The notes beneath the pieces were generated by a model that did no database searches, had not been told where the DNA came from, and saw nothing but the letters and a program-made list of their open reading frames with translations. A stretch of 61,686 nt of DNA, the filler included. It is 7 parts of 7 records of this genome, joined end to end, with 100 filler letters (N's around TTAATTAATTAA, not from the genome) between each part and the next. Parts side by side here need not be neighbours in the genome. Positions count along the whole stretch, not along the records: positions 1 to 8,658 come from SRR22947725_1142; 6 more parts are not named here. One strand, 5' to 3'. The position numbers were made by a program, and so were the translations under genes. This document shows positions 1 to 40,880 of this stretch, piece after piece. Numbering within the stretch: the stretch's first letter is position 1; the number at the start of each line of letters is the position of its first letter.

Positions 1-323
1 TTCTAATATTTAAAGCTGATAATAAAAAAGTAAATTCCGGCGATTTAAAGAAAATCTTTAAAATTAAAATCGATGGAAATGACAACAATGATGAGGAAGT
101 AAAAAAAGATATAAGAATTAAAATTAATTCAGATGATATGTCCGATATAGATATTCAATCGATTTTTGAAGAAATTCAAGCAGAGCTTACTGATGAAGAG
201 TTCAATGAGGTAAGATCAAAATTAGAAGATGCAAGATCTGAATTGGAGAATGCTCTAACTGAAGCATCAGACCAGTTAGATGATGTTGATATTGATATTC
301 AGGTTGAAGTTGAGAATAATTAA
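1..323 (+). CDS. Acidic hypothetical protein, 5'-truncated
   Basis: Frame is open from base 3 (LIFKADNKKV...) through the ORF-track ORF 138..323; very D/E-rich C-terminus; no recognisable motif. Confidence 0.6.
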   Translation, partial: LIFKADNKKVNSGDLKKIFKIKIDGNDNNDEEVKKDIRIKINSDDMSDIDIQSIFEEIQAELTDEEFNEVRSKLEDARSELENALTEASDQLDDVDIDIQVEVENN

Positions 324-324
324 T

Positions 325-1851
325 TTATCCAAATAACTTTCTGACCAAGCGATTTCCCCAAAATATTTTTAAAGCCCCCTTAAGTTGCTCAAATGACTTA
401 TCGGTATATGGGTAAGCTGAAGCTGATTTTTTGCCGATAATAATTGGCATTGCGTGAGCATATCCCAGTAAACCTTCTTTGCCATTAACCACACCTAAGC
501 CACTATTTTTAACGCCACCAAAGGGAACTTCATTAACACCATAACTCATCGCCATATCGTTTACCGAGCAAGCACCCGTTTCTATGGATCGAGCCAGTTT
601 TTGACCCTTAACCAGATCCTTTGTCCAAACATTTCCGTTTAAGCCATAATGAGACTGATTGGCTAATGACAAGGCTTCATCCTCTGAGCTCACCTTCATA
701 ATGCATATGACCGGACCAAAAGTTTCATCCTTCATGATCTTCATCTCATGAGTAACCTCTGTCATTACGGTTGGCTCAAAATATAGACCTTCAAATGCTG
801 GGTTTCTTTTTCCACCAGCAAGAACAGTTGCTCCTTTGGCAATAGCATCATTAACGTGGTCTTCGATAATATCGATTTGCTTATCCCAAAACGTAGGACC
901 AACATCTCCTTTGCAATCATTTGACTGCACTAGGGATTTGGTAATAGAAACAACTTCTGCAACAAATTCATCGTAAATATCTGACATCACATAAATTCTT
1001 TCAGTCCCGCAGCAGTATTGTCCAGCGTTCATAAAGGAGCCAACAACAGCTCCGCTAGCTGCATCCTTTACATCAGCATCTGAACATACAATCATGGCAT
1101 CTTTGCCGCCAAGCTCTAGACTGAAAGGAATTAGCATCTCGCCACACTTTGCTGCAATTTTCTTACCCGTAGCAACGCTGCCTGTAAATGAAACCTTGTC
1201 TGGTCCTTGACTAATGAGCTCAGCGCCAGTTTCACCATCGCCTATTAGAGTCTGGACTAAGTGCATAGGTGCATCTGCCAATGCAAAAATTTCTTGAACC
1301 ATAGCGCCTGACATAGGGGTGACTTCAGAGGGCTTAACAATAACGCTGTTCCCACATAGTATCGCTTGAATGACAGGATTGATTGAAAGGATAAATGGAC
1401 CATTCCATGGAGTAATTACCGCAACAACTCCTCGAGGTTTATAGGTAATAATTGTTTTTTTTAAGAAGCGCATCGGCCCATGCATCTTAATTTTTTTATC
1501 TGAAAGCCATTTTTCTGCTCTTTTGGCATAGAAAACTAGTGAATCAACGGCTGAAAAGACTTCCATCGCCATCGCTTCTTGAACGGGCTTGCCAGTCTCA
1601 CGCATAACAACATCCATGATCCTATCTTGTTGCTGGATAACTACATCTGCAACTCTATGCATTAACTCAACACGTTCTTTTAAGGAGGTTTGTTTCCACT
1701 TAGATTGAGCAATTTTTGCCTGTGTCATGACTTCAGATATTTCATCTGAGTTTGCGCAGTCATAAGTATCAATGTGAGAAAGATCAACGGGACTCTTTAG
1801 AGAAAGCTGCTTACGACCACTCTCTGAGTGAGAAATAGAAAAAATAGCCAT
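325..1851 (-). CDS. NAD(P)-dependent aldehyde dehydrogenase
   Basis: ITPWN, KPSE, FTGS, LELGGK, catalytic Cys in NAGQYC, ETFGP and PFGG motifs. Confidence 0.95.
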   Translation of the reverse strand: MAIFSISHSESGRKQLSLKSPVDLSHIDTYDCANSDEISEVMTQAKIAQSKWKQTSLKERVELMHRVADVVIQQQDRIMDVVMRETGKPVQEAMAMEVFSAVDSLVFYAKRAEKWLSDKKIKMHGPMRFLKKTIITYKPRGVVAVITPWNGPFILSINPVIQAILCGNSVIVKPSEVTPMSGAMVQEIFALADAPMHLVQTLIGDGETGAELISQGPDKVSFTGSVATGKKIAAKCGEMLIPFSLELGGKDAMIVCSDADVKDAASGAVVGSFMNAGQYCCGTERIYVMSDIYDEFVAEVVSITKSLVQSNDCKGDVGPTFWDKQIDIIEDHVNDAIAKGATVLAGGKRNPAFEGLYFEPTVMTEVTHEMKIMKDETFGPVICIMKVSSEDEALSLANQSHYGLNGNVWTKDLVKGQKLARSIETGACSVNDMAMSYGVNEVPFGGVKNSGLGVVNGKEGLLGYAHAMPIIIGKKSASAYPYTDKSFEQLKGALKIFWGNRLVRKLFG

Positions 1852-1853
1852 GA

Positions 1854-2924
1854 TTAAAGCTCCTTGAGTTTTGCTTCCAACATAGGTGTAACGTGATTGT
1901 TAATGTGTGCATTTAAGCCCATTGGCATTATTTCGTAATGCTCAAGCTTTCTAACAACTTTGATCATTATTACAGTGAATTTATACAAAGCTAGAGTATA
2001 AAAATAATCGAAATTATCTGCACTGAAACCTGTTAAAGCTTCCCATTTAGCTATGGTAGCTATAGGTCCTGGGAATCCAGGCAGCCTTTCCGCACCAACT
2101 CCCTTGCTGTTACAGTCATCAATGGCAATGCCCCATGCTAAATCCATGCAAGGATCACCCAAGGATGCCATTTCCCAATCAAGAACTGCAGAGATTTCTC
2201 CGTCAGGTAAGTACATTATATTTGCACATCTAGAGTCACCCCAGATAACAGAAGATTGATTTGATACAGGTTTATTTGCGATCAGCCACTCACGAGCTTG
2301 ATCGGCAACAGGATGCGCTTCTCCTTCCATTGCCCACTCATGAAAATTTAAATAGTAATTAAGCTCTTGATCAAGATAGTTATCACCTAATTCAGGCCTA
2401 TTTAAAAACTCATACTCACCAGTGGAAATATCTACCTGATGAACTTTTGCCATTTCTTCAACCCAGCCCCACCAAATTTTCTCCCGAACCTCTTCGGAGG
2501 AATCTGCAACCCAGCCTTCTTGATGAAAAGGTGGATTATCAGAAGGAGCATCGCCCTCAGCCATCTCCATAACGTAAAACGATGTTCCAAAAACTTCGTC
2601 GCTTTCTTCGTACCACAAGACATTTGGAACTTTAATATTGTGAGCAGACAGCTTTTGCATGATTAGAAATTGTTTATGAATATCGTAATCTGGAAAAACA
2701 AAAAAACCTTCGGGGTAGAACCTTAGAACCATGCCCTTGCTTAACTTTTCATTATCAAGAGAATAAGACACGCGAAAACTTAACGTTTCGTTCGAAAAGC
2801 CAGTATTTTCTGGACCCCCCAAGATTTCTACAGTGATATCTGAGGCAGTTGTAAGTTTTTCTTCCAGCCAGGATTGAAAAATTACTTTGGTCTCTTCTTG
2901 ATTTCTTTCTTGTGGCTTTGGCAT
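1854..2924 (-). CDS. Phosphotransferase, APH/choline-kinase-like (ACAD10/11 N-terminal / LvaA-like) family
   Basis: Brenner-type WGDSRCANIMY, LDWEMASLGDP and FYVME motifs. Confidence 0.85.
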   Translation of the reverse strand: MPKPQERNQEETKVIFQSWLEEKLTTASDITVEILGGPENTGFSNETLSFRVSYSLDNEKLSKGMVLRFYPEGFFVFPDYDIHKQFLIMQKLSAHNIKVPNVLWYEESDEVFGTSFYVMEMAEGDAPSDNPPFHQEGWVADSSEEVREKIWWGWVEEMAKVHQVDISTGEYEFLNRPELGDNYLDQELNYYLNFHEWAMEGEAHPVADQAREWLIANKPVSNQSSVIWGDSRCANIMYLPDGEISAVLDWEMASLGDPCMDLAWGIAIDDCNSKGVGAERLPGFPGPIATIAKWEALTGFSADNFDYFYTLALYKFTVIMIKVVRKLEHYEIMPMGLNAHINNHVTPMLEAKLKEL

Positions 2925-2987
2925 CTTAAAATTTATATGATTTACTACTAACCATAATATATATTTATTTAATTAAAAAGAAATAAT

Positions 2988-4076
2988 ATGACACAAACAT
3001 TTAAGCAAAACTGGAATGAATTTTGTGACGAGCTTAAGTCGATTGGAGATATAGTTTCAAGCCAAGATAATTTAACCAAGACAGATGAGGTTGAGGGGTA
3101 CAGATACCTCACAAGGTTATTAAGATTATCTCTTGAGATGAACATAGAACACTCAAATAAATACCATCCATCTTTTTATAGTTTGTCCCATGAGACAGCA
3201 AAAATTGGTGCGGACAATCCCGACAACATATACCTAAACGCAAATATAGATGGCTCTAGTTCGTATGAAGTATTCGGTAACATTGGTGAAGTTGAGTATC
3301 TTAGTTTTGGGGTTAAAGAAAATAGATATTCAATCGATGGGACCATGAGCTCCTTGGGTGAAATTGATTTGTCTGACATTACTGTGTCTGATGATGGAAA
3401 TTTTAAATTAGTGCTAGGGCAAGATATAAGTGCGAATAATTACTTGCACATGCCCTCTCAAGCGAACATGTTAATAGTTAGGCAGACATACTCTAGAAGA
3501 GTTACACAAAAGCATGCTGAGATAAATATAACTAAACTAGGCAACCCATCAGATCCTGAGCTTTTAACAAATGAAGAGCTTAACAAGCATCTCAAGCAGT
3601 CTCTTGCTTTTGTTAAAGGAACAGCACAAACATTTTTAGGATGGGTCCATGATTTCAAAAAGAATCATAAGAATCAATTGCCTCCTGGGGATCAAGCTTT
3701 TTTTCAGGCTGCTGGAGGGGATCCAAAAATATTTTATCTGCATGGTTACTATGAATTTAATTCTAATGAATATCTTGAAATTAAAACTGACATACCCTCC
3801 TGTGAATTTTGGAACTTTCAGCTTGAAAATTATTGGATGGAATCATTAGATTACAGACATAATCCAATTCATCTAAATTCAGCAACGGCGAAAATGAATC
3901 CCGATAATTCAGCAACCATAATAGTGAGTCACAAAAAACTTGGTATTGAAAACAACCTGATTACAGAGGGAAGAGCTAACGGGGCTATGCTTCTTAGGTG
4001 GATAGGTGCCGATAGCTGCCCTATTCCTGAAGTATCGATTAAGAAATTAACAGATTTGGAGGTGGAGCATGCTTGA
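2988..4076 (+). CDS. DUF1214-like protein (resembles mycobacterial Rv3531c family)
   Basis: EGYRYL, GADNPDNIY, WMESLDY, NPDNSATIIVSH and GAMLLRW segments match my recollection of this family. Confidence 0.75.
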   Translation: MTQTFKQNWNEFCDELKSIGDIVSSQDNLTKTDEVEGYRYLTRLLRLSLEMNIEHSNKYHPSFYSLSHETAKIGADNPDNIYLNANIDGSSSYEVFGNIGEVEYLSFGVKENRYSIDGTMSSLGEIDLSDITVSDDGNFKLVLGQDISANNYLHMPSQANMLIVRQTYSRRVTQKHAEINITKLGNPSDPELLTNEELNKHLKQSLAFVKGTAQTFLGWVHDFKKNHKNQLPPGDQAFFQAAGGDPKIFYLHGYYEFNSNEYLEIKTDIPSCEFWNFQLENYWMESLDYRHNPIHLNSATAKMNPDNSATIIVSHKKLGIENNLITEGRANGAMLLRWIGADSCPIPEVSIKKLTDLEVEHA

Positions 4077-5220
4077 TGCAGTGCAACTACTTGGAGAGGC
4101 TAAGAAAATAACAGGATTAAACTTTCTAGGGAATCCCCTGTTTGAAGAAGGGTTCAATAAGTTAGTTGATTCAATTAACAATGAGGCTGACTTAAATGAG
4201 ATTGGCATTCAAGCTCAGCACCATAGACTCATAGGCGTACTGTCAAATATGCTAAGGATTGAAGATGCCGTGATCAATCATCCTGAAATTTTAAATGAGC
4301 AGATAGTTGCACCAATTGTAATCGTAGGTTTGCCAAGAACAGGCAGTACGATGACTCACAGGTTGCTGGCTGCTGATCCAAGACATACAGCGATGCTTTG
4401 GTGGGAAGGCAGATACCCAGCAATGCTGCCTAATGAAGAGCGAGGCAACCCATCAGAGCGAATGGACCTAGGAAAAGCTGAGGTTGATGCTGTGGTAGCA
4501 GCTTCTCCGGAAGCATTAACCATTCATCCCTGGGACTACAAAGGAGCAGACGAAGAAATCTTGTTGCTGGAACATACATTTTTTAGCACGGTTCCTGAGT
4601 CCTTCATGAGACTGCCTAGTTATTCATCTTGGGTTGAAGATCAAGATCATATTCACGCATACAATCAGTTAAAAATCATGCTCCAGTACCTTCAATGGCA
4701 GAACCCTGGCAGAGAGAAAAAAAGATGGGTTTTAAAATCACCTCATCATCTCGGCTTTATTGATAAGCTGCTGATGGTATTTCCTGACTCAAAAGTTATT
4801 CAGACTCACAGAGACCCACAAAAAACTGTCCCTTCATTTTGTTCTATGTGCGCTAATCTATTTGAACCGCTTACAAATAGCTATGATAAAAATAATATTG
4901 GCTCCCACTGGGCAAATAAATTATCAAAAGTATTAAATCACTGCATGAAGGTAAGCAATGCCAATCCTGACAATTTTTTGAATCTAGATTTTCTTAAGAT
5001 GATTGAAGATCCCATTGCAGAAATGTCGATTGTCTATCAATTTATAGATCAGGATTTTACTGACCAAGCTGAGAATGCTATGACCGCATGGAAAGAAGAG
5101 AACCAGCATGAAATGGGTTCTCACCAATACTCACTGGAAGAATTTGGTCTAGCGCCTACATTCATAGAAACAAATTTTAATGAGTATATAAATCAATACA
5201 TAGATAAGGAGAATTTATGA
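4069..5220 (+). CDS. Sulfotransferase (Sulfotransfer_3 / Rv3529c-like)
   Basis: 5'-PSB loop IVGLPRTGST, WVLKSPHH, 3'-PB motif QTHRDP; overlaps upstream gene by 8 bp. Confidence 0.9.
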   Translation: MLDAVQLLGEAKKITGLNFLGNPLFEEGFNKLVDSINNEADLNEIGIQAQHHRLIGVLSNMLRIEDAVINHPEILNEQIVAPIVIVGLPRTGSTMTHRLLAADPRHTAMLWWEGRYPAMLPNEERGNPSERMDLGKAEVDAVVAASPEALTIHPWDYKGADEEILLLEHTFFSTVPESFMRLPSYSSWVEDQDHIHAYNQLKIMLQYLQWQNPGREKKRWVLKSPHHLGFIDKLLMVFPDSKVIQTHRDPQKTVPSFCSMCANLFEPLTNSYDKNNIGSHWANKLSKVLNHCMKVSNANPDNFLNLDFLKMIEDPIAEMSIVYQFIDQDFTDQAENAMTAWKEENQHEMGSHQYSLEEFGLAPTFIETNFNEYINQYIDKENL

Positions 5221-5990
5221 TTCTAGAAAATAAAGTTGTGATTGTCTCAGGTATTGGGCCAGGTCTAGGTCAAGAATTAGCCTATGGGGCAGCCAGAGAA
5301 GGAGCTAAATTAGTTATAGCTGCAAGATCAACAGAGCTGTTGAATAAGCTTCAAGCAGAGATAACAGAGTCTGGTTCGGAGGTTATTGCTGTTCCTTGTG
5401 ATATTACTAAGCCTGGTGATTGTGAAAACTTAATAAATAAGACAATTGATCAATACGGGAGATTGGATGGACTTTTAAATAGTGCATATAGAGCTGGTGA
5501 CTTTAAAGAAATTTGTGATTCTGATTTTAATGATTGGCAGGAAACAATGAACACTAATTTCTTCGGTACCATGAATTTAACCATGGCAGCTGTTAAAAAA
5601 ATGGAATCAAATGCAGCGATCGTAATGATCAATAGTCTTATTACTAAAAAGCCCTTGCCAACACAAGGTGGTTACGCAGCTTCAAAGGGTGCTTTAGCCA
5701 CAGCAACCAAAATACTTGCAAAAGAACTGGGGCCAAAAGGCATTAGAGTAAATTCTGTGTTTATGGGATGGATGTGGGGGCCTCCAGTTGAGATGTATGT
5801 AAATTATTCAGCTGAAGCTATGGGTGTTTCGCCAGAAACTGTAATAGCTGATGTGACCAAAGATATTCCTCTAGGCTTAATACCTGACGATAGTGACTGT
5901 GCAAACGCAGCTTTGTTTCTAATATCGGATCTTGCTAAGGTAATTACCGGTGCAAGTTTAGATGTTAATGGCGGCGAGTTCATGTCCTGA
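5217..5990 (+). CDS. Short-chain dehydrogenase/reductase (Rv3530c-like)
   Basis: SGIGPGLG Rossmann motif, YAASK catalytic motif, GWMWG and LDVNGGE; ATGA overlap with the sulfotransferase. Confidence 0.92.
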   Translation: MILENKVVIVSGIGPGLGQELAYGAAREGAKLVIAARSTELLNKLQAEITESGSEVIAVPCDITKPGDCENLINKTIDQYGRLDGLLNSAYRAGDFKEICDSDFNDWQETMNTNFFGTMNLTMAAVKKMESNAAIVMINSLITKKPLPTQGGYAASKGALATATKILAKELGPKGIRVNSVFMGWMWGPPVEMYVNYSAEAMGVSPETVIADVTKDIPLGLIPDDSDCANAALFLISDLAKVITGASLDVNGGEFMS

Positions 5991-6074
5991 TGGGTATCGT
6001 GAAAAATATATTCGTCAAGACAAAATGAACTATTTATACTTTTTTTCACTTTAAATTCTATCGATACACTTTAT

Positions 6075-6091
6075 TAGTTAAACTTTAACTA
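6075..6091. promoter_or_regulatory. Perfect 8-1-8 inverted repeat, candidate operator
   Basis: TAGTTAAA-C-TTTAACTA, ending on the A of the amidohydrolase ATG. Confidence 0.3.
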
Positions 6092-6957
6092 TGGGATTTA
6101 ATAAAGATATTTTTACGGTTGATTTAATGCTTGGTATTCCTGAAAAGGAGGATCGATCTGATTGGTATACCTTTATGGAACCGCTTCTCAGAGACGAAGA
6201 GTCAAAGACAATGTTTAAAATGCCTGCCCAATATATGTTTAAAGATATACCTGAAACTGGCTCACATGATGACTTTGTTCAGTATGCTCTTGGGGAAATG
6301 GATAAACATCACATCAATCAAGCCATGGTTGGATTTCATGAACAATCAGAGGTAAAAATTTTAGCTGGTAAAAATCATCCAGACCGTTTTTTCTTTGACT
6401 TGCCAGTTAATCCAAATACTCCAAATGAAGCAGCTAATATTAAGAGAATTTATGAAGAATTTGGAATAAAGGCAGTGAGTGCTTTTCCCTCTGGAATGCA
6501 TCCTCAAGTAGCAATTAATGATGAGAAATGGCATCCCATATATGAAATGTGTGTGGAGTTAGATTTACCATTTTTTTGTTGCGTTGGTGTCCCAGGACCA
6601 AGAATACCGATGGCACCACAAAAAGTTGAGCTCATCGATGAAGTTTGTTGGTATTTCCCTGAGCTAAAATTTGTTATGCGTCATGGCGCTGAACCTTGGA
6701 CGGCTTTAGCTTGTAAATTAATGCTGAAGTATCCGAATCTTTACTATTCAACCAGTGCATTTTCACCGAAGCATTATCCCAAAGACATTGTTAACTTTGC
6801 CAACACAAGAGGCAAAGATAAAATAATGTATGCCGGTTATTTTCCAATGGGCCTAAGCCTTGATAAAATTTTTGCAGAAATGCAAAATGTTCCTTTTAAA
6901 GATGATGTTTGGCCAATGTTTCTTGGTGAGAATGCTAAAAAACTTTTAAAATTATAA
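6091..6957 (+). CDS. Amidohydrolase_2 family protein
   Basis: PIYEMCVELDLP, FPELKFVMRHG.EPW, NLYYSTSA, DKIMY and LGENAKKLLKL TIM-barrel signatures. Confidence 0.85.
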   Translation: MGFNKDIFTVDLMLGIPEKEDRSDWYTFMEPLLRDEESKTMFKMPAQYMFKDIPETGSHDDFVQYALGEMDKHHINQAMVGFHEQSEVKILAGKNHPDRFFFDLPVNPNTPNEAANIKRIYEEFGIKAVSAFPSGMHPQVAINDEKWHPIYEMCVELDLPFFCCVGVPGPRIPMAPQKVELIDEVCWYFPELKFVMRHGAEPWTALACKLMLKYPNLYYSTSAFSPKHYPKDIVNFANTRGKDKIMYAGYFPMGLSLDKIFAEMQNVPFKDDVWPMFLGENAKKLLKL

Positions 6958-6973
6958 AAACTTAGGAAAAATT

Positions 6974-7966
6974 ATGAATGCCACTAAAAGATATCCCATG
7001 CCTCTTCCATTTGGATGGTTTGTAGTTAGTTATGCCAATGAACTTAAAATTGGTGATGTGAAAGCTGTTCGATATTTTGGCCAAGATCAAGTTTTATTTC
7101 GTGGTGAATCAGGCAAAGCTGCAATGTTAGATGCTTATTGTCCCCACCTGGGTGCCCATTTAGGTCATGGTGGATTAGTAAAAAAAGATTGTATTGAATG
7201 TCCATTTCATGCCTGGGAATGGGATGCAAATGGAAAAGTAGCTAATATCCCTTATGCTAAGAATATTCCTCCTAGAGCGAAAGAAGTTAAAATATTTACT
7301 TACCCAACTGTCGAAAAAAATAACCTCGTCTATGCTTGGTACCATCCTAATGGAGATGAGCCATCTTACGAAGTTGAAACTTATCCAGAAATTCTAGACC
7401 CAGAGTGGTCTGACCAGTTTGATTCATATGAATATATTATTGACTGCCATATTCAAGATATGGCTGAAAATGCAGTAGATGCCGCTCATTTTCAATATGT
7501 TCACGGAGTGGTGAGTTACCCTGAATTCGAGGTAACTTATGACAATCAAAAGAGAACCTCTGTCCAAGAAGCTAACATGGAAACTCCGCGAGGCACCATT
7601 AAGGGAAAAATCACTGCCTACTCAAATGGACCTGGAGATAACGCAACTAAATTTGAAGGGATTTGTGACACTTTGCTGCTTGGTTCAACCACTCCTATTG
7701 AAGGAGAAAAATGCATTGTTCGATTCGCATTCCTTCAAAAGAAAATTAATGGTGAAGAGCCGGTTGGTGGCGTAGGCGCAGCAATTATTAAAGACATAAA
7801 TAAGCAAGTCAAAGAGGACATACCTATCTGGGAAAATAAAAAATTTGCTTTAAAGCCAGTACTTTGCGACATGGATGGCCCAATTGCTAAATTTAGAAAG
7901 CAATATGCCACTTTCTATGTAGACTACGATGAAGCTCAAAGCATCGCTGCTTTAAATTTAGATTAA
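6974..7966 (+). CDS. Rieske non-heme iron oxygenase, KshA (3-ketosteroid 9-alpha-hydroxylase) / Neverland-like
   Basis: Rieske CPH...CPFH; mononuclear Fe motif ENAVDAAHFQYVH; C-terminal DIPIWENK...PVLCDMDGPI.KFRK.Y..FY typical of the KshA_C domain. Confidence 0.85.
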   Translation: MNATKRYPMPLPFGWFVVSYANELKIGDVKAVRYFGQDQVLFRGESGKAAMLDAYCPHLGAHLGHGGLVKKDCIECPFHAWEWDANGKVANIPYAKNIPPRAKEVKIFTYPTVEKNNLVYAWYHPNGDEPSYEVETYPEILDPEWSDQFDSYEYIIDCHIQDMAENAVDAAHFQYVHGVVSYPEFEVTYDNQKRTSVQEANMETPRGTIKGKITAYSNGPGDNATKFEGICDTLLLGSTTPIEGEKCIVRFAFLQKKINGEEPVGGVGAAIIKDINKQVKEDIPIWENKKFALKPVLCDMDGPIAKFRKQYATFYVDYDEAQSIAALNLD

Positions 7967-8439
7967 TCTAAAGGGCCAAGTATTTTAAGAAGATCAGCCT
8001 CTAGGCTTATCTCAGGCATCTCGACTATTCTTCCAATTTCCTTCTGATTTCTTAGAAAGACAAAAGTTGGTGTTTTTCTAATTTGAAAGCTTTTTCCTCT
8101 GTCTAGAGGTTCATTTTTTAAATAATTAAGACCAATTAAATGAATATAATTTTCTTGAATATTTAAGGTATTAAGAAGTTGTAGAAGTCGAGGAACCTCT
8201 CTCTGACTATCATGACACCAAGTGCCAAAAAGAACATAGATTTCTATATCGCGAAATAATGCTGGATCCAACAAGTTTCCAGGTTGGTATTCCTCATAAT
8301 TATCCTGAAAACCTTCGTGGTTCTCAAATAAGGTTTTAATTGAAATATCGCCAACAGCATAAGGGTTCATTGGATAGGTTTCTGATGCACAGCTATAGGT
8401 AAATAAAGATAAAAAAAATAATTGATAGATTTTCTTCAT
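7963..8439 (-). CDS. Thioredoxin-fold lipoprotein with CxxS motif
   Basis: Lipobox-like FTYSC after hydrophobic signal; GTWCHDS; cis-Pro TPTF; EIGRIVE. Confidence 0.8.
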   Translation of the reverse strand: MKKIYQLFFLSLFTYSCASETYPMNPYAVGDISIKTLFENHEGFQDNYEEYQPGNLLDPALFRDIEIYVLFGTWCHDSQREVPRLLQLLNTLNIQENYIHLIGLNYLKNEPLDRGKSFQIRKTPTFVFLRNQKEIGRIVEMPEISLEADLLKILGPLD

Positions 8440-8476
8440 GCGGCTGCCAAGATTATAAAAATATAGGAACTGTTAA

Positions 8477-8647
8477 TTATTCTTCTATTAACTCAAAATC
8501 AAATTTACTCACTCCGCATTCAGGGCAGACCCATTCATCTGGTATATCTTCCCATTTGGTACCAGCTGGAATACCATCCTCCGGATCACCAAACTCTTCG
8601 TCATATATGTAGCCACATATAACACATTCATATTTTTGAAATTCCAT
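8477..8647 (-). CDS. Rubredoxin (56 aa, missed by the ORF track)
   Basis: Hand translation: MEFQKYECVICGYIYDEEFGDPEDGIPAGTKWEDIPDEWVCPECGVSKFDFELIEE; two CxxCG motifs. Confidence 0.95.
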   Translation of the reverse strand: MEFQKYECVICGYIYDEEFGDPEDGIPAGTKWEDIPDEWVCPECGVSKFDFELIEE

Positions 8648-8658
8648 TAGGAGTCCTC

Positions 8659-8758
8659 NNNNNNNNNNNNNNNNNNNNNNNNNNNNNNNNNNNNNNNNNN
8701 NNTTAATTAATTAANNNNNNNNNNNNNNNNNNNNNNNNNNNNNNNNNNNNNNNNNNNN
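8659..8758. other. Artificial contig spacer
   Basis: 44 N + TTAATTAATTAA (stops in all six frames) + 44 N. Confidence 0.97.
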
Positions 8759-9294
8759 TGAAGAAGAATTAAATAATGGAATAATAAATCTGCGGATTCG
8801 TTTAAAAACAAATTATCATTATCATCTTTAGCCTCAATAACAAGTTCTACTGCTTCTTCTCCCACCTTTTGAGCTATTTTATTGGTTCCTTTCTTAAACA
8901 AACTAGATACATAGCTAGAATCAGAGGGATTAATCTTTCTGTCTTGTATAATATCCTCAAGTTTACTGATAAAATCACTCGAAACATTAGTATCTTCAAA
9001 ACAGGTGTCATCTCCTTTATGACAAACTGGACCAACGGGATTAACCTTTATAAGTAATGTATCATTATCACAATCCTCCTTTAATGAAACAACCTTTAAT
9101 TCGTTACCACTTTCCTCTCCTTTTTTCCAAATTCTTTGTTTAGTTCTACTGTAAAAATGAACCACATTAGTACTTAAAGTTAAGCTTAAAGACTCTTTAT
9201 TTAAATAACCTAGCATCAACACTTTATGAGTATTGTTATCTTGAATAATTGCAGGGACTAATCCGTCTTTATTTTTATTAAAATCTAAATTCAT
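8759..9294 (-). CDS. hisIE: Bifunctional PR-AMP cyclohydrolase / PR-ATP pyrophosphatase, 3'-truncated
   Basis: [40 protein letters not shown]. Confidence 0.95.
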
Positions 9295-10046
9295 AATCGT
9301 ATAGGTATATTATTATTTTTCAATTCTATTTTAAGTTCTTGTAATCCAATTTCATTAAAATGAAATACACTAGCAGCAAGTGCAGCGTCAATATTCCCAG
9401 ATTTAAAGACTTCATTAAAATGTTCAATTTTCCCCGCTCCACCAGAAGCAATAATTGGAATATTCACTGTTTCAGAAAGCTTTTCAAGTGCCTGGCAAGC
9501 AAATCCATTTTTAGTTCCGTCATGATCCATCGATGTAAAAAGAATTTCTCCTGCTCCCCTATCCTCTACTTCTTTAGCCCAGTCAAATAACCTGATATCT
9601 GTTTTAATTCTTCCACCAATTAAATAAACGTACCAATCATTATCAATAAATTTTGCGTCAATTGCTACAACAACACATTGGCTTCCAAAACCTGAGGCTA
9701 ATTCATTGATAAAACCAGGGTTTTTTACGACATAACTATTCACAGAAACCTTGTCTGCACCATTTTTTAATAGAATCTCTACGTCTTTCAAAGATTTAAT
9801 ACCTCCTCCAACAGTGAACGGAATATTAATGTTCTCTGAAATCTGGTCAACAAGTTTTGCAAATGTTCTTCTATCTTCTTTAGTAGCAGTTATATCTAAA
9901 AAAACAAGCTCGTCTGCTCCGTTTTCAGAGTAATATTTAGCAAGTTCAACTGGATCTCCGGCATCTACAAGGTCTACAAAATTAACTCCCTTTACAGTTC
10001 TGGAGTCTTTTATATCAAGACATGGTATTATTCTTTTAGCTAGCAT
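9291..10046 (-). CDS. hisF: Imidazole glycerol phosphate synthase cyclase subunit
   Basis: [39 protein letters not shown]. Confidence 0.97.
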
Positions 10047-10768
10047 TATGTATTTATAAAATTCATTAAACTTTTTAATTCTATTTTGTTTTCATAAATC
10101 GCTTTTCCAAGAATAGCTCCTTCACAACCAATCTCTTTTAAATCTTCTAAATCTTTAATCTTTGAGATTCCACCCGAAGCAATTAAACAAATATCTTTAT
10201 ATGATTTTAAGATGTTTTTATATGAATCTGTTGAAGGGCCTTTAAGCATTCCGTCTTTAGAAATATCAGTTGGAATAACATACTTTACTCCTTTTGAGAT
10301 GTGATAATTTAAGAAATCCATAAGATCACTCCCAGAATCATTAAGCCATCCATTTGTTTTAATCTTGTTATCTAAAAAATCAGCACCTAAAATTATCTTA
10401 TCTGCTCCGTATTTATCAAACAATTCAATAAACGTTTCAGGGCTTGAAACAGCAATACTACCTAAAGTAACCTGAGATGCGCCTGATTCAAATGCCACTC
10501 TAACATCTTCAATTGATTTTAATCCACCACCAAAATCAATGTTTAAAGCTGTTTTTAGAGCAATTTGCTCTAGAATCTTATGATTTATAATCTTACTTGA
10601 CTTGGCGCCGTCTAAATCAACTAAATGAAGATAATTAATCCCATGATCTTCAAACCTCTGAGCCATTTCAAATGGACTAGAGTTATATATAGTTTTTTTA
10701 CTGTAATCACCTTGTGATAGCCTTACACACTTTCCTTCAATAATATCTATAGCTGGAATTATTCTCAT
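10046..10768 (-). CDS. hisA: ProFAR isomerase
   Basis: [33 protein letters not shown]. Confidence 0.97.
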
Positions 10769-11352
10769 TATGGATTAGTTATAAAATTTTTAAGTATAAT
10801 TTCACCTTTGCCTCCACTCTTTTCAGGGTGAAACTGAACTCCAGTAAAATTATTTTTTTTAATTGCCGTACTATAATCAATTCCGTATTTAGTAGTTGAT
10901 ATAGTTTCCGAAATAACGGGGACAAAATAACTATGTACTAAATACATGTATTCCTTTTCACTTATTGAATTAAACAGACTAGTCTTTAAATCAAAAATAG
11001 TATTCCATCCAATTTGAGGAACCTTTAGAGAGTTGTCAAACTTTTTGACCTTAGAATTAAATATTTTAAGACACTCGGTACTTCCTTCTTCAGAGAAATC
11101 ACACATTAACTGCATACCTAAACATATACCTAATACTGGTTGTTTTAAATTAGGGATAAGCAAATCCAATCCTTCAGACTGAAGTTTTTTCATTGCACTA
11201 CTAGCCTGACCTACTCCAGGAAAAATAACTTTATCTGAATTTGAAATCACTTCTTTGTCTGAAGTCAAAATTCCTTCACAACCAAGTCTTTTCAAAGCGT
11301 ATTTCACACTTTGAGTATTACCAGTTCCATAATCAATTATAGCTATTCTCAT
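10768..11352 (-). CDS. hisH: Imidazole glycerol phosphate synthase glutamine amidotransferase
   Basis: IDYGTGN, PGVG, GICLGMQ, QFHPEKS. Confidence 0.97.
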
Positions 11353-12464
11353 TACAAAACTCCTTTAGTGGATGGTAATATTAATTTATCTTGATTTTTA
11401 CTTACAGCACTTTTAATACACTTAGCAAAAGCCTTGAATATAGATTCAATTTTATGATGCTCGTTAGTTCCTTCAACTTTTATATTAGCATTTAGTTTAG
11501 CTGCGTCACAGAACGATTTAAAAAAGTGGTAAAACATTTCAGTTGGCACATCCCCTATCTTCTCTCTTTTAAATTCAGCGTCCCAAACCAGCCAACTTCT
11601 TCCTCCAAAATCTATTGCTACTTGAGCTAAACAGTCGTCCATCGGTAGTGAAAAAGCATATCTTTCGATTCCTATTTTCTTTCCTAGCAGAGTGGAAAAA
11701 GATTCCCCAAGTGCAATTGCAGTATCTTCAATAGTATGATGCTCGTCAACATTTAAATCCCCGTCAACTTTAATATTTAGATCTATTAGCGAGTGCCTAG
11801 AAAGCTGATCTAACATGTGATCAAAAAACGAAAGGCCAGTATCAATATTACTTTTTCCTGTTCCATCTAAATCAAGCTCAATCTCAATTTTAGTTTCATT
11901 TGTAATTCTCTCAAAATTAGAATACCTGCTTAACCCACTTAGATACTCATAAACTGATTTCCAAGAATCTGTTTTAAGTTTTACAACATCGCTTAACGAC
12001 TTGTCTAAATCTGAGCCATTGTAAAAAATTCCAGAACATTTTAAGTTATTAGCAAGTTGCATATCAGATGATCTATCTCCAATAACAAAAGAATTAACCA
12101 TATCAATGTTACTATCCTCTATATATTCTGTTAACAATCCTGTTCTTGGCTTTCTGTAATTTGAATTTTCTTTTTCAAAACTCTTGTCAATATGTATTTT
12201 AAAAAAATTAATTTTTTCATTTTTAAAAGAGCTAATAATAAAATTTTGAACAGGCCAAAAGGTTGTTTCTGGAAACGAGTCTGTTCCTAGACCATCTTGA
12301 TTTGTAACCATTACAAGTTCAAAATCTAACTCTTCACTAATTTTATTTAAATACTTAAACACTCCAGGAAGAAAACTTAATTTCTCAAAACTATCTAATT
12401 GCTTATCCAGTTTAGGTTCTTTAACTAAAGTTCCATCTCTATCTATAAAAAGAATCTTTTTCAT
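11352..12464 (-). CDS. hisB: Bifunctional histidinol-phosphatase / IGP dehydratase
   Basis: HAD motif FIDRDGTL, RKP, GDR; DEHHTIED and NEHHKIES; STKGVL. Confidence 0.96.
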   Translation of the reverse strand: MKKILFIDRDGTLVKEPKLDKQLDSFEKLSFLPGVFKYLNKISEELDFELVMVTNQDGLGTDSFPETTFWPVQNFIISSFKNEKINFFKIHIDKSFEKENSNYRKPRTGLLTEYIEDSNIDMVNSFVIGDRSSDMQLANNLKCSGIFYNGSDLDKSLSDVVKLKTDSWKSVYEYLSGLSRYSNFERITNETKIEIELDLDGTGKSNIDTGLSFFDHMLDQLSRHSLIDLNIKVDGDLNVDEHHTIEDTAIALGESFSTLLGKKIGIERYAFSLPMDDCLAQVAIDFGGRSWLVWDAEFKREKIGDVPTEMFYHFFKSFCDAAKLNANIKVEGTNEHHKIESIFKAFAKCIKSAVSKNQDKLILPSTKGVL

Positions 12465-13498
12465 AATTCATTTAATGTTTTTATTAATATTTTATTTTCA
12501 TCTTTTGTACCAACTGTAATTCTTAAACAGTTTTGACACAAATATTGATTCGTTCTGTTTCTAACTACAATACCCTTTTTCAATAACTGATTGTATCTTA
12601 AATCAGCATTATCCACTTTAACAAGTATAAAGTTTGCGTCAGATTCGTATATTTTTTCAACAAAATCAAGTTTTTCTAAAAAGGAAATCAACTTCTCTTT
12701 CTGATTTAAAATAGAATTGACATTACTTTTAATTTCACTAACCTTTTTCAGCTCCTCTAAAGCTTTATTTTCAGTAAGTATATTTATATTATATGGAGGT
12801 TTGATTTTATTTATGTAACTAATAATTTTTTCGTTTGAAAATCCCATCCCTAATCTGATACCTGCCATTCCATAAGCCTTAGACATAGTTTGAGTAATTA
12901 TTAAATTTTCATACTTGCCAATAAGATTAATTAAAGATTTTTGAGATGAAAAATCTATATAAGCCTCATCAATAACAACAATACCCTTGAAGTCTTTAAT
13001 TAAATCACTTAAAATATTAATATCAAATGAATTTCCTGTGGGATTATTTGGAGAGCACAAGAACAAAATCTTAGTATTAGATGGTTTTAAACCTAGTATT
13101 TTATCTCTGTCAATTGAAAAATCGCTTTTTAATGGAATTTCAATGTTTTCAACACTATTAGTCTTAGCTATCACATCATACATGCCATAAGTTGGAGGAA
13201 GAGTAATTATCTGATCTTGGTTTGGATTACAAAAAACCCTAACAATTAAATCGAGAATTTCGTCAGTCCCGTTACCAAAAACAACTTGATTTACATTTAC
13301 ATTTTTAATTTTAGAAACAACTGTCTTTAAATCATTATGCTTATTATCAGGATATCTATTAATTCCATTATCAAAAGGAGATTCATTTGCGTCTAAATAA
13401 ATTAAGTTTTCATCACATCCGTTCTTGTACTCATCTCTAGCAGATGAATACGAAGACATATTTTTAACATTGTCTCTTACCAGAGCATCTATTTTCAT
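12461..13498 (-). CDS. hisC: Histidinol-phosphate aminotransferase
   Basis: LDANESP, CSPNNPTGN, DEAY, TMSKAYGMAGIRLG. Confidence 0.96.
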   Translation of the reverse strand: MKIDALVRDNVKNMSSYSSARDEYKNGCDENLIYLDANESPFDNGINRYPDNKHNDLKTVVSKIKNVNVNQVVFGNGTDEILDLIVRVFCNPNQDQIITLPPTYGMYDVIAKTNSVENIEIPLKSDFSIDRDKILGLKPSNTKILFLCSPNNPTGNSFDINILSDLIKDFKGIVVIDEAYIDFSSQKSLINLIGKYENLIITQTMSKAYGMAGIRLGMGFSNEKIISYINKIKPPYNINILTENKALEELKKVSEIKSNVNSILNQKEKLISFLEKLDFVEKIYESDANFILVKVDNADLRYNQLLKKGIVVRNRTNQYLCQNCLRITVGTKDENKILIKTLNEL

Positions 13499-13499
13499 A

Positions 13500-14786
13500 T
13501 TAACTTTTTAAATCTTTAACCCTTATTGATACCGCATTTTTATGAGCCTGTAAACCTTCTGCTTTAGCCATAGTCTCTACTGTTTTTGAAATATTCAATA
13601 AACCAGTTTTTGATATTTTCTGAAAAGTGATTGTCTTTTGAAAACTATCTAAATTAACACCGCTATATTGCTTAGCATTTCCATTTGTTGGCAGAGTGTG
13701 ATTTGTTCCTGATGCGTAATCACCAGCGCTTTCAGGTGTGTAATTACCAATAAATACAGATCCGGCACTTACTATATTATCAACAAAGAAAGATTCGTCT
13801 TGAACATTAATTATATAATGCTCTGGTGCATATAAATTAATGAAATCAATTGCCTTAGTCTTATCATCAAAAAATATAAGTTTAGAATTTGAAATTGATT
13901 TATTAATAAAATCTATTCTGTCTAAGCTTTTGACTTGATCATTTATACATTTCTCAACTTCATTTATTAAGGGTTTTGAAAGGCTTACAAATATAACCTG
14001 ACTATCAGGTCCATGCTCTGCTTGAGAGAGTAAATCTGATGCTATATAACTAGGGTTAGCATACTTATCAGCTAATACTAATAATTCACTTGGACCTGCA
14101 GGCATATCAATTGCTGTATTAAAATTGATCGATTTTAATTTAGCATAGGTAACAAACTGATTTCCTGGTCCAAATATCTTATTTACTTTAGGAACAGTCT
14201 CTGTTCCTAAACTCATAGCCGCCACTGATTGAGCTCCACCAACACAAATGACTGTATCCACTTTACAAAGTTTAGCACAATACAAGATAGCTGGATGAAG
14301 TTCACCATTTTTATTAGGTGGTGAACAAAGAACAATATTTTTACATTTAGCTATCATAGCAGGAATAGCTAACATTAAAACTGATGAAAACAAAGGAGCT
14401 GTACCACCTGGGATATACAAGCCAACATTTTCTATAGCTCTCTTTTCTTGCCAACATAAAACCCCAGGTGTAGTTTCAATTTTATTGAAATCAATAACCT
14501 GATTCTTGTGAAATTTATAAATGTTATTAAAAGCTGCATTGATTGACTCTTTTAAATCCTTGTCAATATCATTTTCTGAATTATTAATTTTTTCAGAGCT
14601 AACCTTTAAATTATTCAATTCAACATTGTCGAATTTTTTTGTGTATTCTATTAAAGATTTATCTCCATATAATTCAACATTTGTAAAAATTTCATCCACA
14701 ACGTCTTTTACAGAATCAAGACTATAAACTGGCCGTTTAACCAACGAAGTCCATGTGCTTTTATTTGGGTTAAATATTTTATTCAT
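13500..14786 (-). CDS. hisD: Histidinol dehydrogenase
   Basis: GLYIPGG, GPGNQFV, DMPAGPSE, QAEH, APEH, GTNHTLPT. Confidence 0.97.
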   Translation of the reverse strand: MNKIFNPNKSTWTSLVKRPVYSLDSVKDVVDEIFTNVELYGDKSLIEYTKKFDNVELNNLKVSSEKINNSENDIDKDLKESINAAFNNIYKFHKNQVIDFNKIETTPGVLCWQEKRAIENVGLYIPGGTAPLFSSVLMLAIPAMIAKCKNIVLCSPPNKNGELHPAILYCAKLCKVDTVICVGGAQSVAAMSLGTETVPKVNKIFGPGNQFVTYAKLKSINFNTAIDMPAGPSELLVLADKYANPSYIASDLLSQAEHGPDSQVIFVSLSKPLINEVEKCINDQVKSLDRIDFINKSISNSKLIFFDDKTKAIDFINLYAPEHYIINVQDESFFVDNIVSAGSVFIGNYTPESAGDYASGTNHTLPTNGNAKQYSGVNLDSFQKTITFQKISKTGLLNISKTVETMAKAEGLQAHKNAVSIRVKDLKS

Positions 14787-15643
14787 TATAAAACCATTTT
14801 TTCAATTGGACACACTAATATATCTTCAGCTCCAGCATCTTTAATTTTATCGATCACTTCCCAAAAAGTATCTTCATTGATAACTGAATGCAAAGAGCTC
14901 CAACCCTCTTTACTTAAAGGAAGAACAGTTGGACTCTTTAAAACAGGAAGTATTTCAGAAATAGCATTTATTTTATCATTTGGAGCGTTTAAAAGAATAT
15001 ACTTAGACTCTTTGGCTTTTAAAACAGCTTTAACTCTAAACAAAAACTTGTCTAGCAAATATTTGTTGGATTCTAACACATGTTTGTTTCCAGCCAATAC
15101 AGCTTGTGATTCATGAATTACAAATACTTCTTTTAAGTTATTTTTATAAAGTGTACTGCCACTTGAAACTATATCACATATAGCATCTGACAATCCAATG
15201 TTTGGAGCTATCTCAACCGATCCGTTAATAACATGGATATCCGCACTAATATTGTTTTTATTTAAAAACTTTTTAAGTGTGTTAGGATAGGATGTAGCAA
15301 TTTTAAGATTGTTTAAATAAGAAATAGAATTAAATTCAACTTCTTTTGGAACTGCAATTGAGACCTTGCATTTAGAAAATCCTAAATTTTCTATAACATC
15401 AATTTTAAAATCTTTTTCGATTAATAAATTTTCGCCAATTATTGCTAAATCAACTACCCCATCGTTAATATATTTTGGAATATCACTGTTTCTTAAAAAA
15501 TAAACCTCAATAGGAAAATTTCTAGCCGAGGCCATTAATTGATCCTTATAGTTGTCTATTTTAATTCCACATTTATTCAAAAGGTTTAAAGAATCCGTAT
15601 TGAGTCTTCCTGATTTCTGAATTGCAATTTTTAGTTTTTTCAT
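14786..15643 (-). CDS. hisG: ATP phosphoribosyltransferase (long form)
   Basis: IAIQKSGRL, ATSYPN, GSVEIAP, DIVSSGSTL plus C-terminal regulatory domain. Confidence 0.97.
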   Translation of the reverse strand: MKKLKIAIQKSGRLNTDSLNLLNKCGIKIDNYKDQLMASARNFPIEVYFLRNSDIPKYINDGVVDLAIIGENLLIEKDFKIDVIENLGFSKCKVSIAVPKEVEFNSISYLNNLKIATSYPNTLKKFLNKNNISADIHVINGSVEIAPNIGLSDAICDIVSSGSTLYKNNLKEVFVIHESQAVLAGNKHVLESNKYLLDKFLFRVKAVLKAKESKYILLNAPNDKINAISEILPVLKSPTVLPLSKEGWSSLHSVINEDTFWEVIDKIKDAGAEDILVCPIEKMVL

Positions 15644-15660
15644 TTATTGATTTTTTTTAT

Positions 15661-15695
15661 AAAAAAAATGCCCGTTTGAATTAACAAACGGGCAT
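15661..15695 (-). terminator. Attenuator terminator of the his operon
   Basis: Perfect 11-bp stem ATGCCCGTTTG / CAAACGGGCAT, 6-nt loop, followed on the minus strand by a T run just before hisG. Confidence 0.85.
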
Positions 15696-15717
15696 GTATA
15701 ATAATATAACAATATCA

Positions 15718-15774
15718 TCACATCACTCGTTTGAGGATATTAAAATGATGATGATTGTTACGGTTAAATTTCAT
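15718..15774 (-). CDS. Histidine operon leader peptide MKFNRNNHHHFNILKRVM
   Basis: 18-aa ORF with three tandem CAT codons, 22 nt upstream of the terminator stem. Confidence 0.8.
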   Translation of the reverse strand: MKFNRNNHHHFNILKRVM

Positions 15775-15808
15775 TGTTTAAATTTGAATTGCAAATATTA
15801 TAAAAAAA

Positions 15809-15914
15809 TTATTGATTTCCTAGAATAATTGGTAAACCATCTTTTCCACTTCCAATTACAATTACTTTAGAGTTAGGAGACTCAGCAAGTTTAGTAGTAG
15901 CTTCAATACCCTTA
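15809..15914 (-). CDS. SPFH/prohibitin family protein, C-terminal fragment
   Basis: KGIEATTKLAESPNSKVIVIGSGKDGLPIILGNQ*, typical bacterial prohibitin C-terminus. Confidence 0.75.
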
Positions 15915-16014
15915 NNNNNNNNNNNNNNNNNNNNNNNNNNNNNNNNNNNNNNNNNNNNTTAATTAATTAANNNNNNNNNNNNNNNNNNNNNNNNNNNNNN
16001 NNNNNNNNNNNNNN
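15915..16014. other. Artificial contig spacer
   Basis: 44 N + TTAATTAATTAA + 44 N. Confidence 0.97.
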
Positions 16015-37665: not shown

Positions 37666-37677
37666 TATGACTAATTA

Positions 37678-38517: not shown

Positions 38518-38518
38518 T

Positions 38519-39568: not shown

Positions 39569-39578
39569 TACTTTTTAA

Positions 39579-40877: not shown

Positions 40878-40880
40878 CAT

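Follow-up and report, generated by a model that had tools for sequence, protein, structure and literature searches.

What substrate could be served by a compact cluster of genes in which a Rieske oxygenase is combined with a sulfotransferase and a kinase? This question is raised by positions 325-7966 of the stretch of DNA analyzed here (61,686 nt, hereafter the window), where the genes of an aldehyde dehydrogenase and an APH-fold kinase diverge from those of a DUF1214-like protein, a sulfotransferase, a short-chain dehydrogenase/reductase (SDR), an Amidohydro_2 enzyme and a Rieske non-haem-iron oxygenase (Table 1). The comparison with related genomes has revealed that these seven genes and an adjoining rubredoxin gene are inherited as a unit, not as a chance neighborhood, and that they form a conserved accessory gene cluster of part of SAR86, which ranks with the most abundant bacteria of ocean surface waters and whose diet has been inferred mainly from genomes. 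The best explanation, held with moderate confidence, is that the cluster is a catabolic module that would oxidize and derivatize a steroid-like (polycyclic isoprenoid) substrate from seawater, with the word steroid resting on homology and gene context.

A conserved gene unit of SAR86

Relatives of the Rieske protein were sought in one genome per species, and 57 loci were obtained. In 14 of these loci (L003-L016), mostly titled SAR86 or unclassified Gammaproteobacteria or Proteobacteria metagenome-assembled genomes (MAGs), with L004 titled Owenweeksia, the protein is 71-98% identical to that of the window. All seven genes keep their order and orientation in nine of the 14 (L003, L005-L008, L010 and L014-L016), six of the seven were found in L013, and in L004, L009, L011 and L012, which are truncated by contig ends, the part that remains is in agreement. 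Across these loci the individual cluster proteins are 52-99% identical, with lowest values of 52-70%. The rubredoxin gene adjoins the Rieske gene in all 14 loci, and the thioredoxin-like gene located between them in the window is variable (6 of 14). The DUF1214-like gene was found in 25 of the 201 sampled genomes of the SAR86 order, which are kin, and counts made among them overstate independence.

The contig that carries the cluster (1-8658, 8.66 kb) ends at a linker of the form N44-TTAATTAATTAA-N44, identical copies of which are located at 8659-8758, 15915-16014, 22157-22256, 31681-31780, 37410-37509 and 55679-55778. The window was built as a pseudomolecule by joining seven contigs end to end and, because the linker closes the contig at 8658, the genes located past 8758 (the his operon and others) are not physically linked to the cluster. 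The cluster contig is 93% identical at DNA level, across 353-8647, to L003, a 1.19-Mb contig of the SAR86 MAG G002, and is assigned to SAR86 on this match. The DNA match to all SAR86 loci breaks off at about 8650, and the left edge of the window (1-352) is unlike the SAR86 relatives, which have there an SDR gene followed by Fno, CofE and CofD genes. For another contig, 37510-55678, the match (98% identity) is genome G001, which belongs to a different order, with the DUF1214-like gene in none of 201 sampled genomes versus the 25 of 201 in the order of G002. A search of the G001 genome has shown that both the cluster and KshA_C proteins are absent from it, and the contig that it matches is not that of the cluster; region 7967-16000, which spans the contig 8759-15914, gave only 72%-identical fragments with G001. 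Since 1-8658 is SAR86 and 37510-55678 is G001-like, the source assembly appears to mix organisms in one bin, and the window should be handled with caution, its joined contigs coming from at least two organisms.

A sequence-only reading of this DNA had described the seven enzyme genes and a 63-bp divergent spacer, and both were found in the open reading frame (ORF) listing and family scans, the spacer at 2925-2987. Two further genes, coding for the thioredoxin-like protein and the rubredoxin, had been overlooked, and the statement that no transporter, regulator, coenzyme A (CoA) ligase or ring-cleavage gene is on this contig is baseless, since the cluster contig ends at 8658. A SAR86-like host had been guessed from the AT content; the 93% identity to L003 upholds SAR86, and the AT content was mostly that of DNA from other contigs. 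The interpretation as a whole stands in its SAR86 host, its conserved gene set, kept in the same order and orientation in nine of the 14 loci, and its KshA-type Rieske protein, and fails in the claim of a stand-alone module.

The cluster is part of a larger SAR86 island and not a stand-alone pathway. In the three relatives checked (L003, L006 and L016) an MFS_2 transporter gene lies 3' of the rubredoxin gene, intact in L006 and L016 (444 residues) and as two ORFs in L003 (11677-13018), and the window contig stops just short of this position. Genes of coenzyme F420 metabolism (Fno, CofE and CofD) are located left of the aldehyde dehydrogenase gene in all nine SAR86 loci that reach there, with an oppositely oriented SDR gene between the aldehyde dehydrogenase/kinase pair and Fno in eight of the nine; none is present in the ORF listing of the cluster contig of the window. 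In the genomes G002 and G003 these F420 genes are followed by those of CofC and FbiC, of a DUF1295 membrane protein and of an M20 peptidase, and the G003 proteins pass the NCBIfam cut-offs for the CofG and CofH domains, CofC, CofD, CofE and NADPH-dependent F420 reductase. The full F420 set with Fno is located at 1-3492 in L016, 128-4776 in L064 and 15203-18480 in L082. Among the 201 SAR86-order genomes FbiC is present in 30 and accompanied by the DUF1214-like gene in 23, and in 18 of these 23 both genes are on one contig, 7-11 kb apart. None of the seven cluster proteins belongs, according to the family scans, to a known F420-dependent family. Neither F420 nor sulfotransferase is mentioned in the main texts of two SAR86 genome papers (PMC11582366 and PMC3358033), nor Rieske in that of the first or rubredoxin in that of the second. 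Seven papers contain SAR86 as well as F420, in no case in the title; most of these titles are on other systems, and the F420 passages of one of the papers are about other taxa.

Steroid-type genes are found in the same genomes. The complete genome G003 has, about 13 kb from the cluster, genes for a KstD-family flavoprotein and an SDR together with two SnoaL-like genes, and the best models of the flavoprotein are 3-oxosteroid 1-dehydrogenases (520 bits, under the cut-off of 788). G002 holds a separate KshA-like gene, its best KshA_C gene, together with a luciferase-like monooxygenase (LLM)-type oxidoreductase, HsaD-, HsaE-, HsaF- and HsaG-like genes, a P450, SDRs and an AsnC regulator pair; the best model of this LLM oxidoreductase is the F420-dependent family TIGR03619, below cut-off. 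This KshA_C gene of G002 (L062, 9527-10821) is present as two ORFs, a Rieske one of 145 residues and a KshA_C one of 281 residues, which may be due to a frameshift or an assembly error or may be a genuine split. In Mycobacterium branderi a TIGR03619-annotated LLM gene is one gene, that of an AMP-binding protein, away from a KshA-family Rieske gene.

The oxygenase and its partner enzymes

The domain composition of the Rieske protein relates it to KshA, the oxygenase of 3-ketosteroid 9-alpha-hydroxylase, as the sequence-only reading had proposed from its motifs. Both PF00355 (75.8 bits) and PF19298 (KshA_C, 104.3 bits) are past their cut-offs, versus 23 bits, under cut-off, for VanA_C, which places the protein as KshA-type and not VanA-type, the latter being a placement by which the sequence-only reading would have been refuted. 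Three KshA structures (4qdc, 4qdf and 2zyl) are its best solved relatives, aligned over its full length with E-values of 1.4e-43, 8.7e-43 and 3.9e-32, and other, non-steroid oxygenase structures are matched in the Rieske domain only, at 1e-17 or worse. The CPH...CPFH motif and the stretches ENAVDAAHFQYVH and EDIPIWENK align with those of the three KshA structures, and residues in the last two stretches are those that we take to bind iron. Despite this likeness the protein of the cluster has 330 residues versus 386-394 for KshA, is about 30% identical to actinobacterial homologues and has a rubredoxin as conserved neighbor, with no KshB-type reductase in related genomes. Identities of 43-55% link it to oxygenases of L017, Haliea salexigens and two sphingomonad megaplasmids, in comparison with 31% to a KshA-like homologue on pRHL1 of Rhodococcus jostii RHA1 and 32% to a homologue of M. 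branderi; orthology with the characterized 9-alpha-hydroxylases was not found on this account. Two other KshA_C paralogues of G002 are 27-33% identical to it, and the overall range against homologues outside the subfamily (RHA1, M. branderi, S. herbicidovorans and the G002 paralogues) is 25-34%. The best scorer of the three KshA_C proteins of G002 reaches 195 bits versus 105 for the cluster-type one. Judged by its sequence, the protein belongs to the KshA family but is not KshA, and it is assigned to a subfamily distinct from the 9-alpha-hydroxylases.

The closest settings of the oxygenase and its amidohydrolase partner in cultured bacteria are two sphingomonad plasmids, pNL2 of Novosphingobium aromaticivorans DSM 12444 and pTomTYG64a of Sphingobium TomTYG64, in which co-directional genes code for a CoA ligase, an amidohydrolase (60% identical to that of the cluster), a Rieske oxygenase (44%) and an amidase. 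The amidohydrolase and Rieske genes are next to each other in TomTYG64 and one SDR gene apart in pNL2, and downstream of both runs there are genes of AsnC-type regulators and of acyl-CoA dehydrogenases, the latter as two neighbors in TomTYG64 and as one annotated gene in the pNL2 stretch. The amidohydrolase and Rieske pair also occurs with paired acyl-CoA dehydrogenases in L020 and L021, in L020 with a CoA ligase as well, and in L017 a KstD-like gene, SnoaL genes, an SDR and a TonB receptor are beside the Rieske homologue. The amidohydrolase of the cluster matches the PDB entry 3irs (1.3e-14), and its weaker solved relatives are 4-oxalomesaconate hydratase and decarboxylases.

A cluster of this composition, for bile-salt side chains, has been described in Sphingobium sp. 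Chol11 (Feller et al. 2021, 10.1101/2021.05.19.444901 and 10.1101/2021.06.24.449856). According to these preprints the side-chain cluster is conserved in strain F199, which grows on bile salts, and the Chol11 KshA homologue Nov2c228 is made only with bile salts that bear a side chain and hydroxylated a steroid at a position that was not determined; a distinct KshB partner was, by their account, not found in Chol11. From the composition of their clusters, the oxygenases of pNL2 and TomTYG64 are putative orthologues of Nov2c228. The SAR86 cluster resembles the Chol11 one in that its oxygenase and amidohydrolase match the pair in these two similarly composed clusters. It differs in having neither a CoA ligase nor an acyl-CoA dehydrogenase pair nor an amidase, and in the addition of a kinase, an aldehyde dehydrogenase, a sulfotransferase, a DUF1214-like protein and a rubredoxin.

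A second sub-module is formed by the DUF1214-like, sulfotransferase and SDR genes. The DUF1214-like protein remains below the cut-off of Pfam DUF1214 (PF06742, 21.4 bits versus 25), and its homologues at 47-53% identity carry this domain; its best structural match is the uncharacterized PDB entry 6ans (3.6e-84). On these matches it is classified as a divergent member of PF06742, a family without assigned function. It has 5115 relatives, some of them fused to SRPBCC domains, and an Atlas search returned DUF1214 clusters as neighbors, with no function gained. The sulfotransferase matches the structures 2zq5 (1.4e-42) and 2z6v (2.9e-38), and its GLPRTGST loop aligns with GLVRTGTT and GMPRTGTT, respectively; we take this loop to be the one that binds the 5'-phosphosulfate of 3'-phosphoadenosine 5'-phosphosulfate (PAPS). 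The SDR is 38% identical to the SDR beside the DUF1214 gene on pNL2.

These three genes recur in steroid-degrading sphingomonads and in Mycobacteriales. The DUF1214-like gene adjoins the sulfotransferase and/or the SDR gene in Tsukamurella, Novosphingobium and Sphingobium, and on a plasmid of Tsukamurella (Mycobacteriales) all three are adjacent, beside cysD and cysC. In pNL2 and in Novosphingobium ES2-1 the genes of DUF1214 and an SDR are accompanied by those of CysQ and a TonB receptor, and a FadD3-family ligase is encoded close to them; in pNL2 the DUF1214 and SDR genes, and the sulfotransferase gene 5 kb further, are located among genes of KstD-like flavin adenine dinucleotide (FAD) proteins and NTF2 proteins. 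In Sphingobium TomTYG64 the adjacent sulfotransferase and DUF1214 genes are found among meta-cleavage genes and an aldehyde dehydrogenase gene (35% identity to that of the window).

A resemblance of several partners to the cholesterol region of Mycobacterium tuberculosis, which the sequence-only reading had also pointed out, agrees with the match to 2zq5, presumably Stf1 (Rv3529c) of M. tuberculosis, and with the presence of the trio on a plasmid of the Mycobacteriales. In M. tuberculosis the trio would be Rv3531c-Rv3530c-Rv3529c, which we assume to lie in the cholesterol region with Rv3531c as the DUF1214-like member. The Mycobacteriales trio has the same three families adjacent in Tsukamurella and a sulfotransferase related to that of SAR86; it differs in gene order and in the PAPS synthesis genes that stand beside the Tsukamurella trio and are undetectable in cluster-bearing SAR86. 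Rv3529c has been named Stf1 (PMC8882603), a KstR operator has been described upstream of Rv3531c (PMC1995591), and a table note counts Rv3531c among the genes needed for growth on cholesterol (PMC6429209, Table 1). The SAR86 cluster joins this trio with the sphingomonad Rieske/amidohydrolase pair, both gene sets being unexplained in well-studied degraders, and offers in its compact, streamlined form a small test bed for both.

The kinase matches the structures 9fsg (1.3e-40) and 3ats (3.6e-39), with its catalytic motifs WGDSRCANIMY and LDWE aligned to those of the solved homologues; a literature search by PDB code gave nothing on the entries 9FSG and 6ANS. Few genomes of the class have a homologue of this kinase (2 of the 400 others searched, at E<=1e-45), and one of these two homologues has as neighbors a pair of acyl-CoA dehydrogenases, an SDR and a TonB receptor. 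The aldehyde dehydrogenase gene is kept beside the kinase gene in the SAR86 loci, and its product has as best NCBIfam model the GabD2-type succinic semialdehyde dehydrogenase NF006916, below cut-off (462 versus 521 bits). A possible functional analogue of the kinase is the 25-hydroxysteroid kinase (25-HSK) of Sterolibacterium denitrificans, a 40-kDa protein described as 'phosphotransferase family' that phosphorylates a steroid side-chain alcohol for phosphate elimination (PMC8449060). The two enzymes are alike in that the kinase of the window has 356 residues and an APH fold, which the name of 25-HSK suggests for this enzyme too. They differ in that 25-HSK, compared here by its description only, acts in an anaerobic pathway with molybdenum hydroxylases instead of a Rieske oxygenase. 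A literature search for a crystal structure of 25-HSK gave nothing.

Predicted pathway and competing explanations

In the proposed catabolic module the substrate would be taken up through the MFS_2 transporter, and the Rieske enzyme, fed by the rubredoxin, would hydroxylate an unactivated carbon, probably not C9 and possibly on or near the side chain by analogy with Nov2c228. The SDR and the aldehyde dehydrogenase could then turn alcohol functions into a ketone or a carboxylate, and the Amidohydro_2 enzyme may hydrate, hydrolyze or decarboxylate the oxidized product. The APH-type kinase and the sulfotransferase would load phosphate or sulfate onto hydroxyls, either as leaving groups for elimination or in the handling of sulfated substrates, and the DUF1214-like protein may work with the sulfotransferase and the SDR. 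KstD-like, KshA-like and HsaD/E/F/G-like enzymes, whose genes are located in other parts of these genomes, would take over the products. Earlier papers have already predicted that SAR86 catabolizes steroids (PMC4810484 and PMC11582366).

Three puzzles are raised by this gene set: a sulfotransferase without PAPS synthesis, a Rieske enzyme with a rubredoxin and without a KshB-type reductase, and an F420 neighborhood. A KshB-type reductase was sought in two related genomes, G002 and G003, and not found; the only PF00175 protein of each, of 410 residues and encoded beside ApbE and an Rnf-Nqr subunit gene, was read as NqrF, and the rubredoxin is the only conserved candidate electron carrier for the Rieske enzyme. 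With respect to sulfate, ATP sulfurylase of both types (PF01747 and PF01507) has no match in either genome, and adenosine 5'-phosphosulfate (APS) kinase (PF01583) gave one unconvincing hit of 22-26 bits in each, that of G003 in an AAA-type ORF of 136 residues. Eight of the 201 SAR86-order genomes have an APS kinase at E<=1e-10, and the 25 DUF1214-positive ones are not among them; Dupont et al. describe SAR86 as lacking sulfate assimilation. Because PAPS synthesis is undetectable in the cluster-bearing genomes, the sulfotransferase step is left without an evident donor; one possibility is that the sulfate comes from sulfated substrates via 3'-phosphoadenosine 5'-phosphate (PAP). A sulfatase gene is located about 4 kb beyond the cluster in L006 (15877-17496), a notable neighbor for a sulfotransferase without PAPS supply.

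The missing reductase and the missing sulfate donor weigh against a catabolic module for steroid-like substrates, and several other results do so as well. A KshA_C domain alone does not define a steroid substrate, and the NCBIfam equivalog cut-offs are missed by the oxygenase and by the KstD-like and HsaD-like proteins. The CoA ligase, acyl-CoA dehydrogenases and amidase of the sphingomonad side-chain cluster are lacking in the SAR86 cluster: no CoA ligase, heteromeric acyl-CoA dehydrogenase or amidase was found among the genes of 325-8647 or in the annotated flanks of L003 and L016. The Nov2c228 orthology of the pNL2 and TomTYG64 oxygenases was deduced from cluster composition only. In S. herbicidovorans MH, said to hold a similar cluster, the best match on pMSHV, the one record searched, is 30.5% identical and in an unrelated setting, and in Freel et al. 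2024 kshA, kstD and hsaACD are given only for some genomes of one SAR86 family.

A more specific version of the steroid-like module would have a KshB-independent Rieske steroid hydroxylase, fed by rubredoxin, tied to F420 and coupled to leaving-group chemistry by the kinase and an Stf1-like sulfotransferase, with sulfate moved from marine sterol sulfates via bound PAP. This version is considered unlikely. If true, it would be an aerobic counterpart of the ATP-dependent dehydration of anaerobic sterol side-chain degradation, and it would give a first function to the DUF1214-like/SDR/sulfotransferase trio shared with mycobacteria.

Among the alternatives to a steroid-like substrate, the one that survives best is a catabolic cluster for a hydrophobic or amphipathic compound of the sea that is not a steroid, such as a different terpenoid, an isoprenoid from pigments, a sulfated lipid, or an alkyl or aromatic compound, and it is put forward as a tentative possibility. 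All seven families are broad and none reaches the equivalog cut-off for a steroid enzyme, the hydratase and decarboxylases related to the Amidohydro_2 protein act on aromatic-derived acids, and the meta-cleavage genes that surround the sulfotransferase and DUF1214 genes of TomTYG64 are those for aromatic-type substrates. The sulfatase of L006 would also suit this alternative, and broad aromatic, polycyclic and heterocyclic catabolism is stressed for SAR86 by Freel et al. However, the solved structures nearest to the oxygenase are all of KshA, the closest cultured homologues of the amidohydrolase and Rieske proteins are in clusters composed like that for bile-salt side chains, and genes of the KstD family, as well as SnoaL-like and HsaD-like ones, are found together with the cluster or with homologues of it.

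A biosynthetic cluster, in which a lipid or quinone of the cell itself would be hydroxylated and then sulfated or phosphorylated, is quite unlikely. In mycobacteria sulfomenaquinone is made in a parallel manner, by a hydroxylase together with a sulfotransferase. Both types of enzyme are encoded in one operon here too, a Coq4-family gene adjoins the sulfotransferase homologue on pNL2, PAPS synthesis genes stand beside the Tsukamurella trio, and an occurrence in 25 of the 201 SAR86-order genomes is that of an optional trait. Nevertheless, PAPS synthesis was not detected in the cluster-bearing SAR86 genomes, the aldehyde dehydrogenase, the amidohydrolase and the transporter suit catabolism better, and the homologues are found among TonB receptors, CoA ligases and acyl-CoA dehydrogenases.

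It is very unlikely that the kinase and the aldehyde dehydrogenase belong to the F420 operon, in a route from lactaldehyde to lactate and 2-phospholactate, with only the right arm being catabolic. In G003 the pair is co-directional with the Fno, CofE, CofD, CofC and FbiC genes, with gaps of <=38 nt, the CofE protein is of the single-domain type (240 residues), presumably lacking the reductase domain of FbiB, and the aldehyde dehydrogenase matches, at rank six, an archaeal lactaldehyde dehydrogenase model (1.3e-91). However, kinase orthologues, defined by 45% identity or more, track the DUF1214-like gene and not FbiC: they were found in 22 of the 25 DUF1214-positive SAR86 genomes, among these both FbiC-negative ones, and in none of the seven FbiC-positive, DUF1214-negative genomes. 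In a second gammaproteobacterial lineage (L017-L019, Rieske identity 50-53%) FbiC, CofD, CofE and Fno genes are beside the Rieske gene in the absence of the kinase, the aldehyde dehydrogenase and the other four cluster genes. Because of these two distributions the pair goes with the cluster and not with the F420 operon, and the role of the left arm as supplier of an F420 precursor is weakened. The opposed SDR gene also splits the pair from Fno in eight of the nine SAR86 loci, and in the window the pair stays with the right arm and a different ORF abuts it.

That the genes are neighbors by descent only, with no common substrate, is scarcely credible: they are linked by comparison and the promoter and terminator scans are not above chance, but order and orientation are kept across SAR86 lineages at 52-70% protein identity, several coding regions overlap by 4-8 nt, and the sub-modules recur in other phyla.

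Remaining features of the window

The coordinates of the features of the cluster contig are collected in Table 1.

Table 1. Features of the cluster contig (positions 1-8658 of the window).
Feature	Coordinates	Strand	Evidence
3' end of an ORF, very acidic, C-terminal 106 residues	3..323	+	No family match
Aldehyde dehydrogenase, 508 aa	325..1851	-	Pfam Aldedh 3.4e-134
APH-fold small-molecule kinase, 356 aa	1854..2924	-	Pfam APH 2.7e-24
AT-rich divergent spacer, 63 bp	2925..2987		ORF listing
DUF1214-like protein, 362 aa	2988..4076	+	PDB 6ans 3.6e-84
Sulfotransfer_3 sulfotransferase, 383 aa	4069..5220	+	Pfam 3.4e-39; PF13469 135.8 bits
Short-chain dehydrogenase/reductase (SDR), 257 aa	5217..5990	+	NF005909 322 bits, cut-off 258 (passed)
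Amidohydro_2 metal-dependent hydrolase/hydratase-type enzyme, 288 aa	6091..6957	+	Pfam 1.5e-23
KshA-family Rieske non-haem-iron monooxygenase, 330 aa	6974..7966	+	Rieske and KshA_C domains
Thioredoxin-like protein, signal/lipoprotein-like N-terminus	7963..8439	-	
Rubredoxin, 56 aa	8477..8647	-	Pfam Rubredoxin 1.5e-23

The alignment of the divergent spacer from nine loci has revealed no operator conserved past close relatives. In 1-8658 the promoter scan returned 19 promoter-like sites versus 26.9 expected, and the terminator scan three terminator-like sites versus 6.0 expected. Contigs from four marine metatranscriptome studies covered 23-29 of the 30 bins of the cluster contig at 90-100% identity, and one of them spanned the divergent spacer, with DNA carry-over being possible; these matches are a presence in RNA libraries, not a proof of transcription.

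No transfer RNA was found in a scan of the window, and one suspected at 8476-8651 was rejected, this region being the rubredoxin gene. The step in guanine-plus-cytosine content along the window (0.38 versus 0.29-0.36) had been considered as a sign of a genomic island and was also rejected: it reflects the seam between source organisms, and six measured regions of G002 have likewise values of 0.37-0.39.

Parts of the cluster were found as 97-99% identical copies (L004, a 3.2-kb contig, and protein P0055) filed under Owenweeksia and Candidatus Thioglobus MAGs, and the small contig of the cluster seems to have been binned under several taxon labels. ORF calls that start in or beside the linkers are affected by them, for example 8707-9294. 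In the contig 8759-15914 the scanned ORFs are hisB, hisH, hisA, hisF and hisIE, in this order, with a bifunctional HisB, and the three co-directional ORFs located upstream of these his genes (12461-15643) could be hisC, hisD and hisG by size and position.

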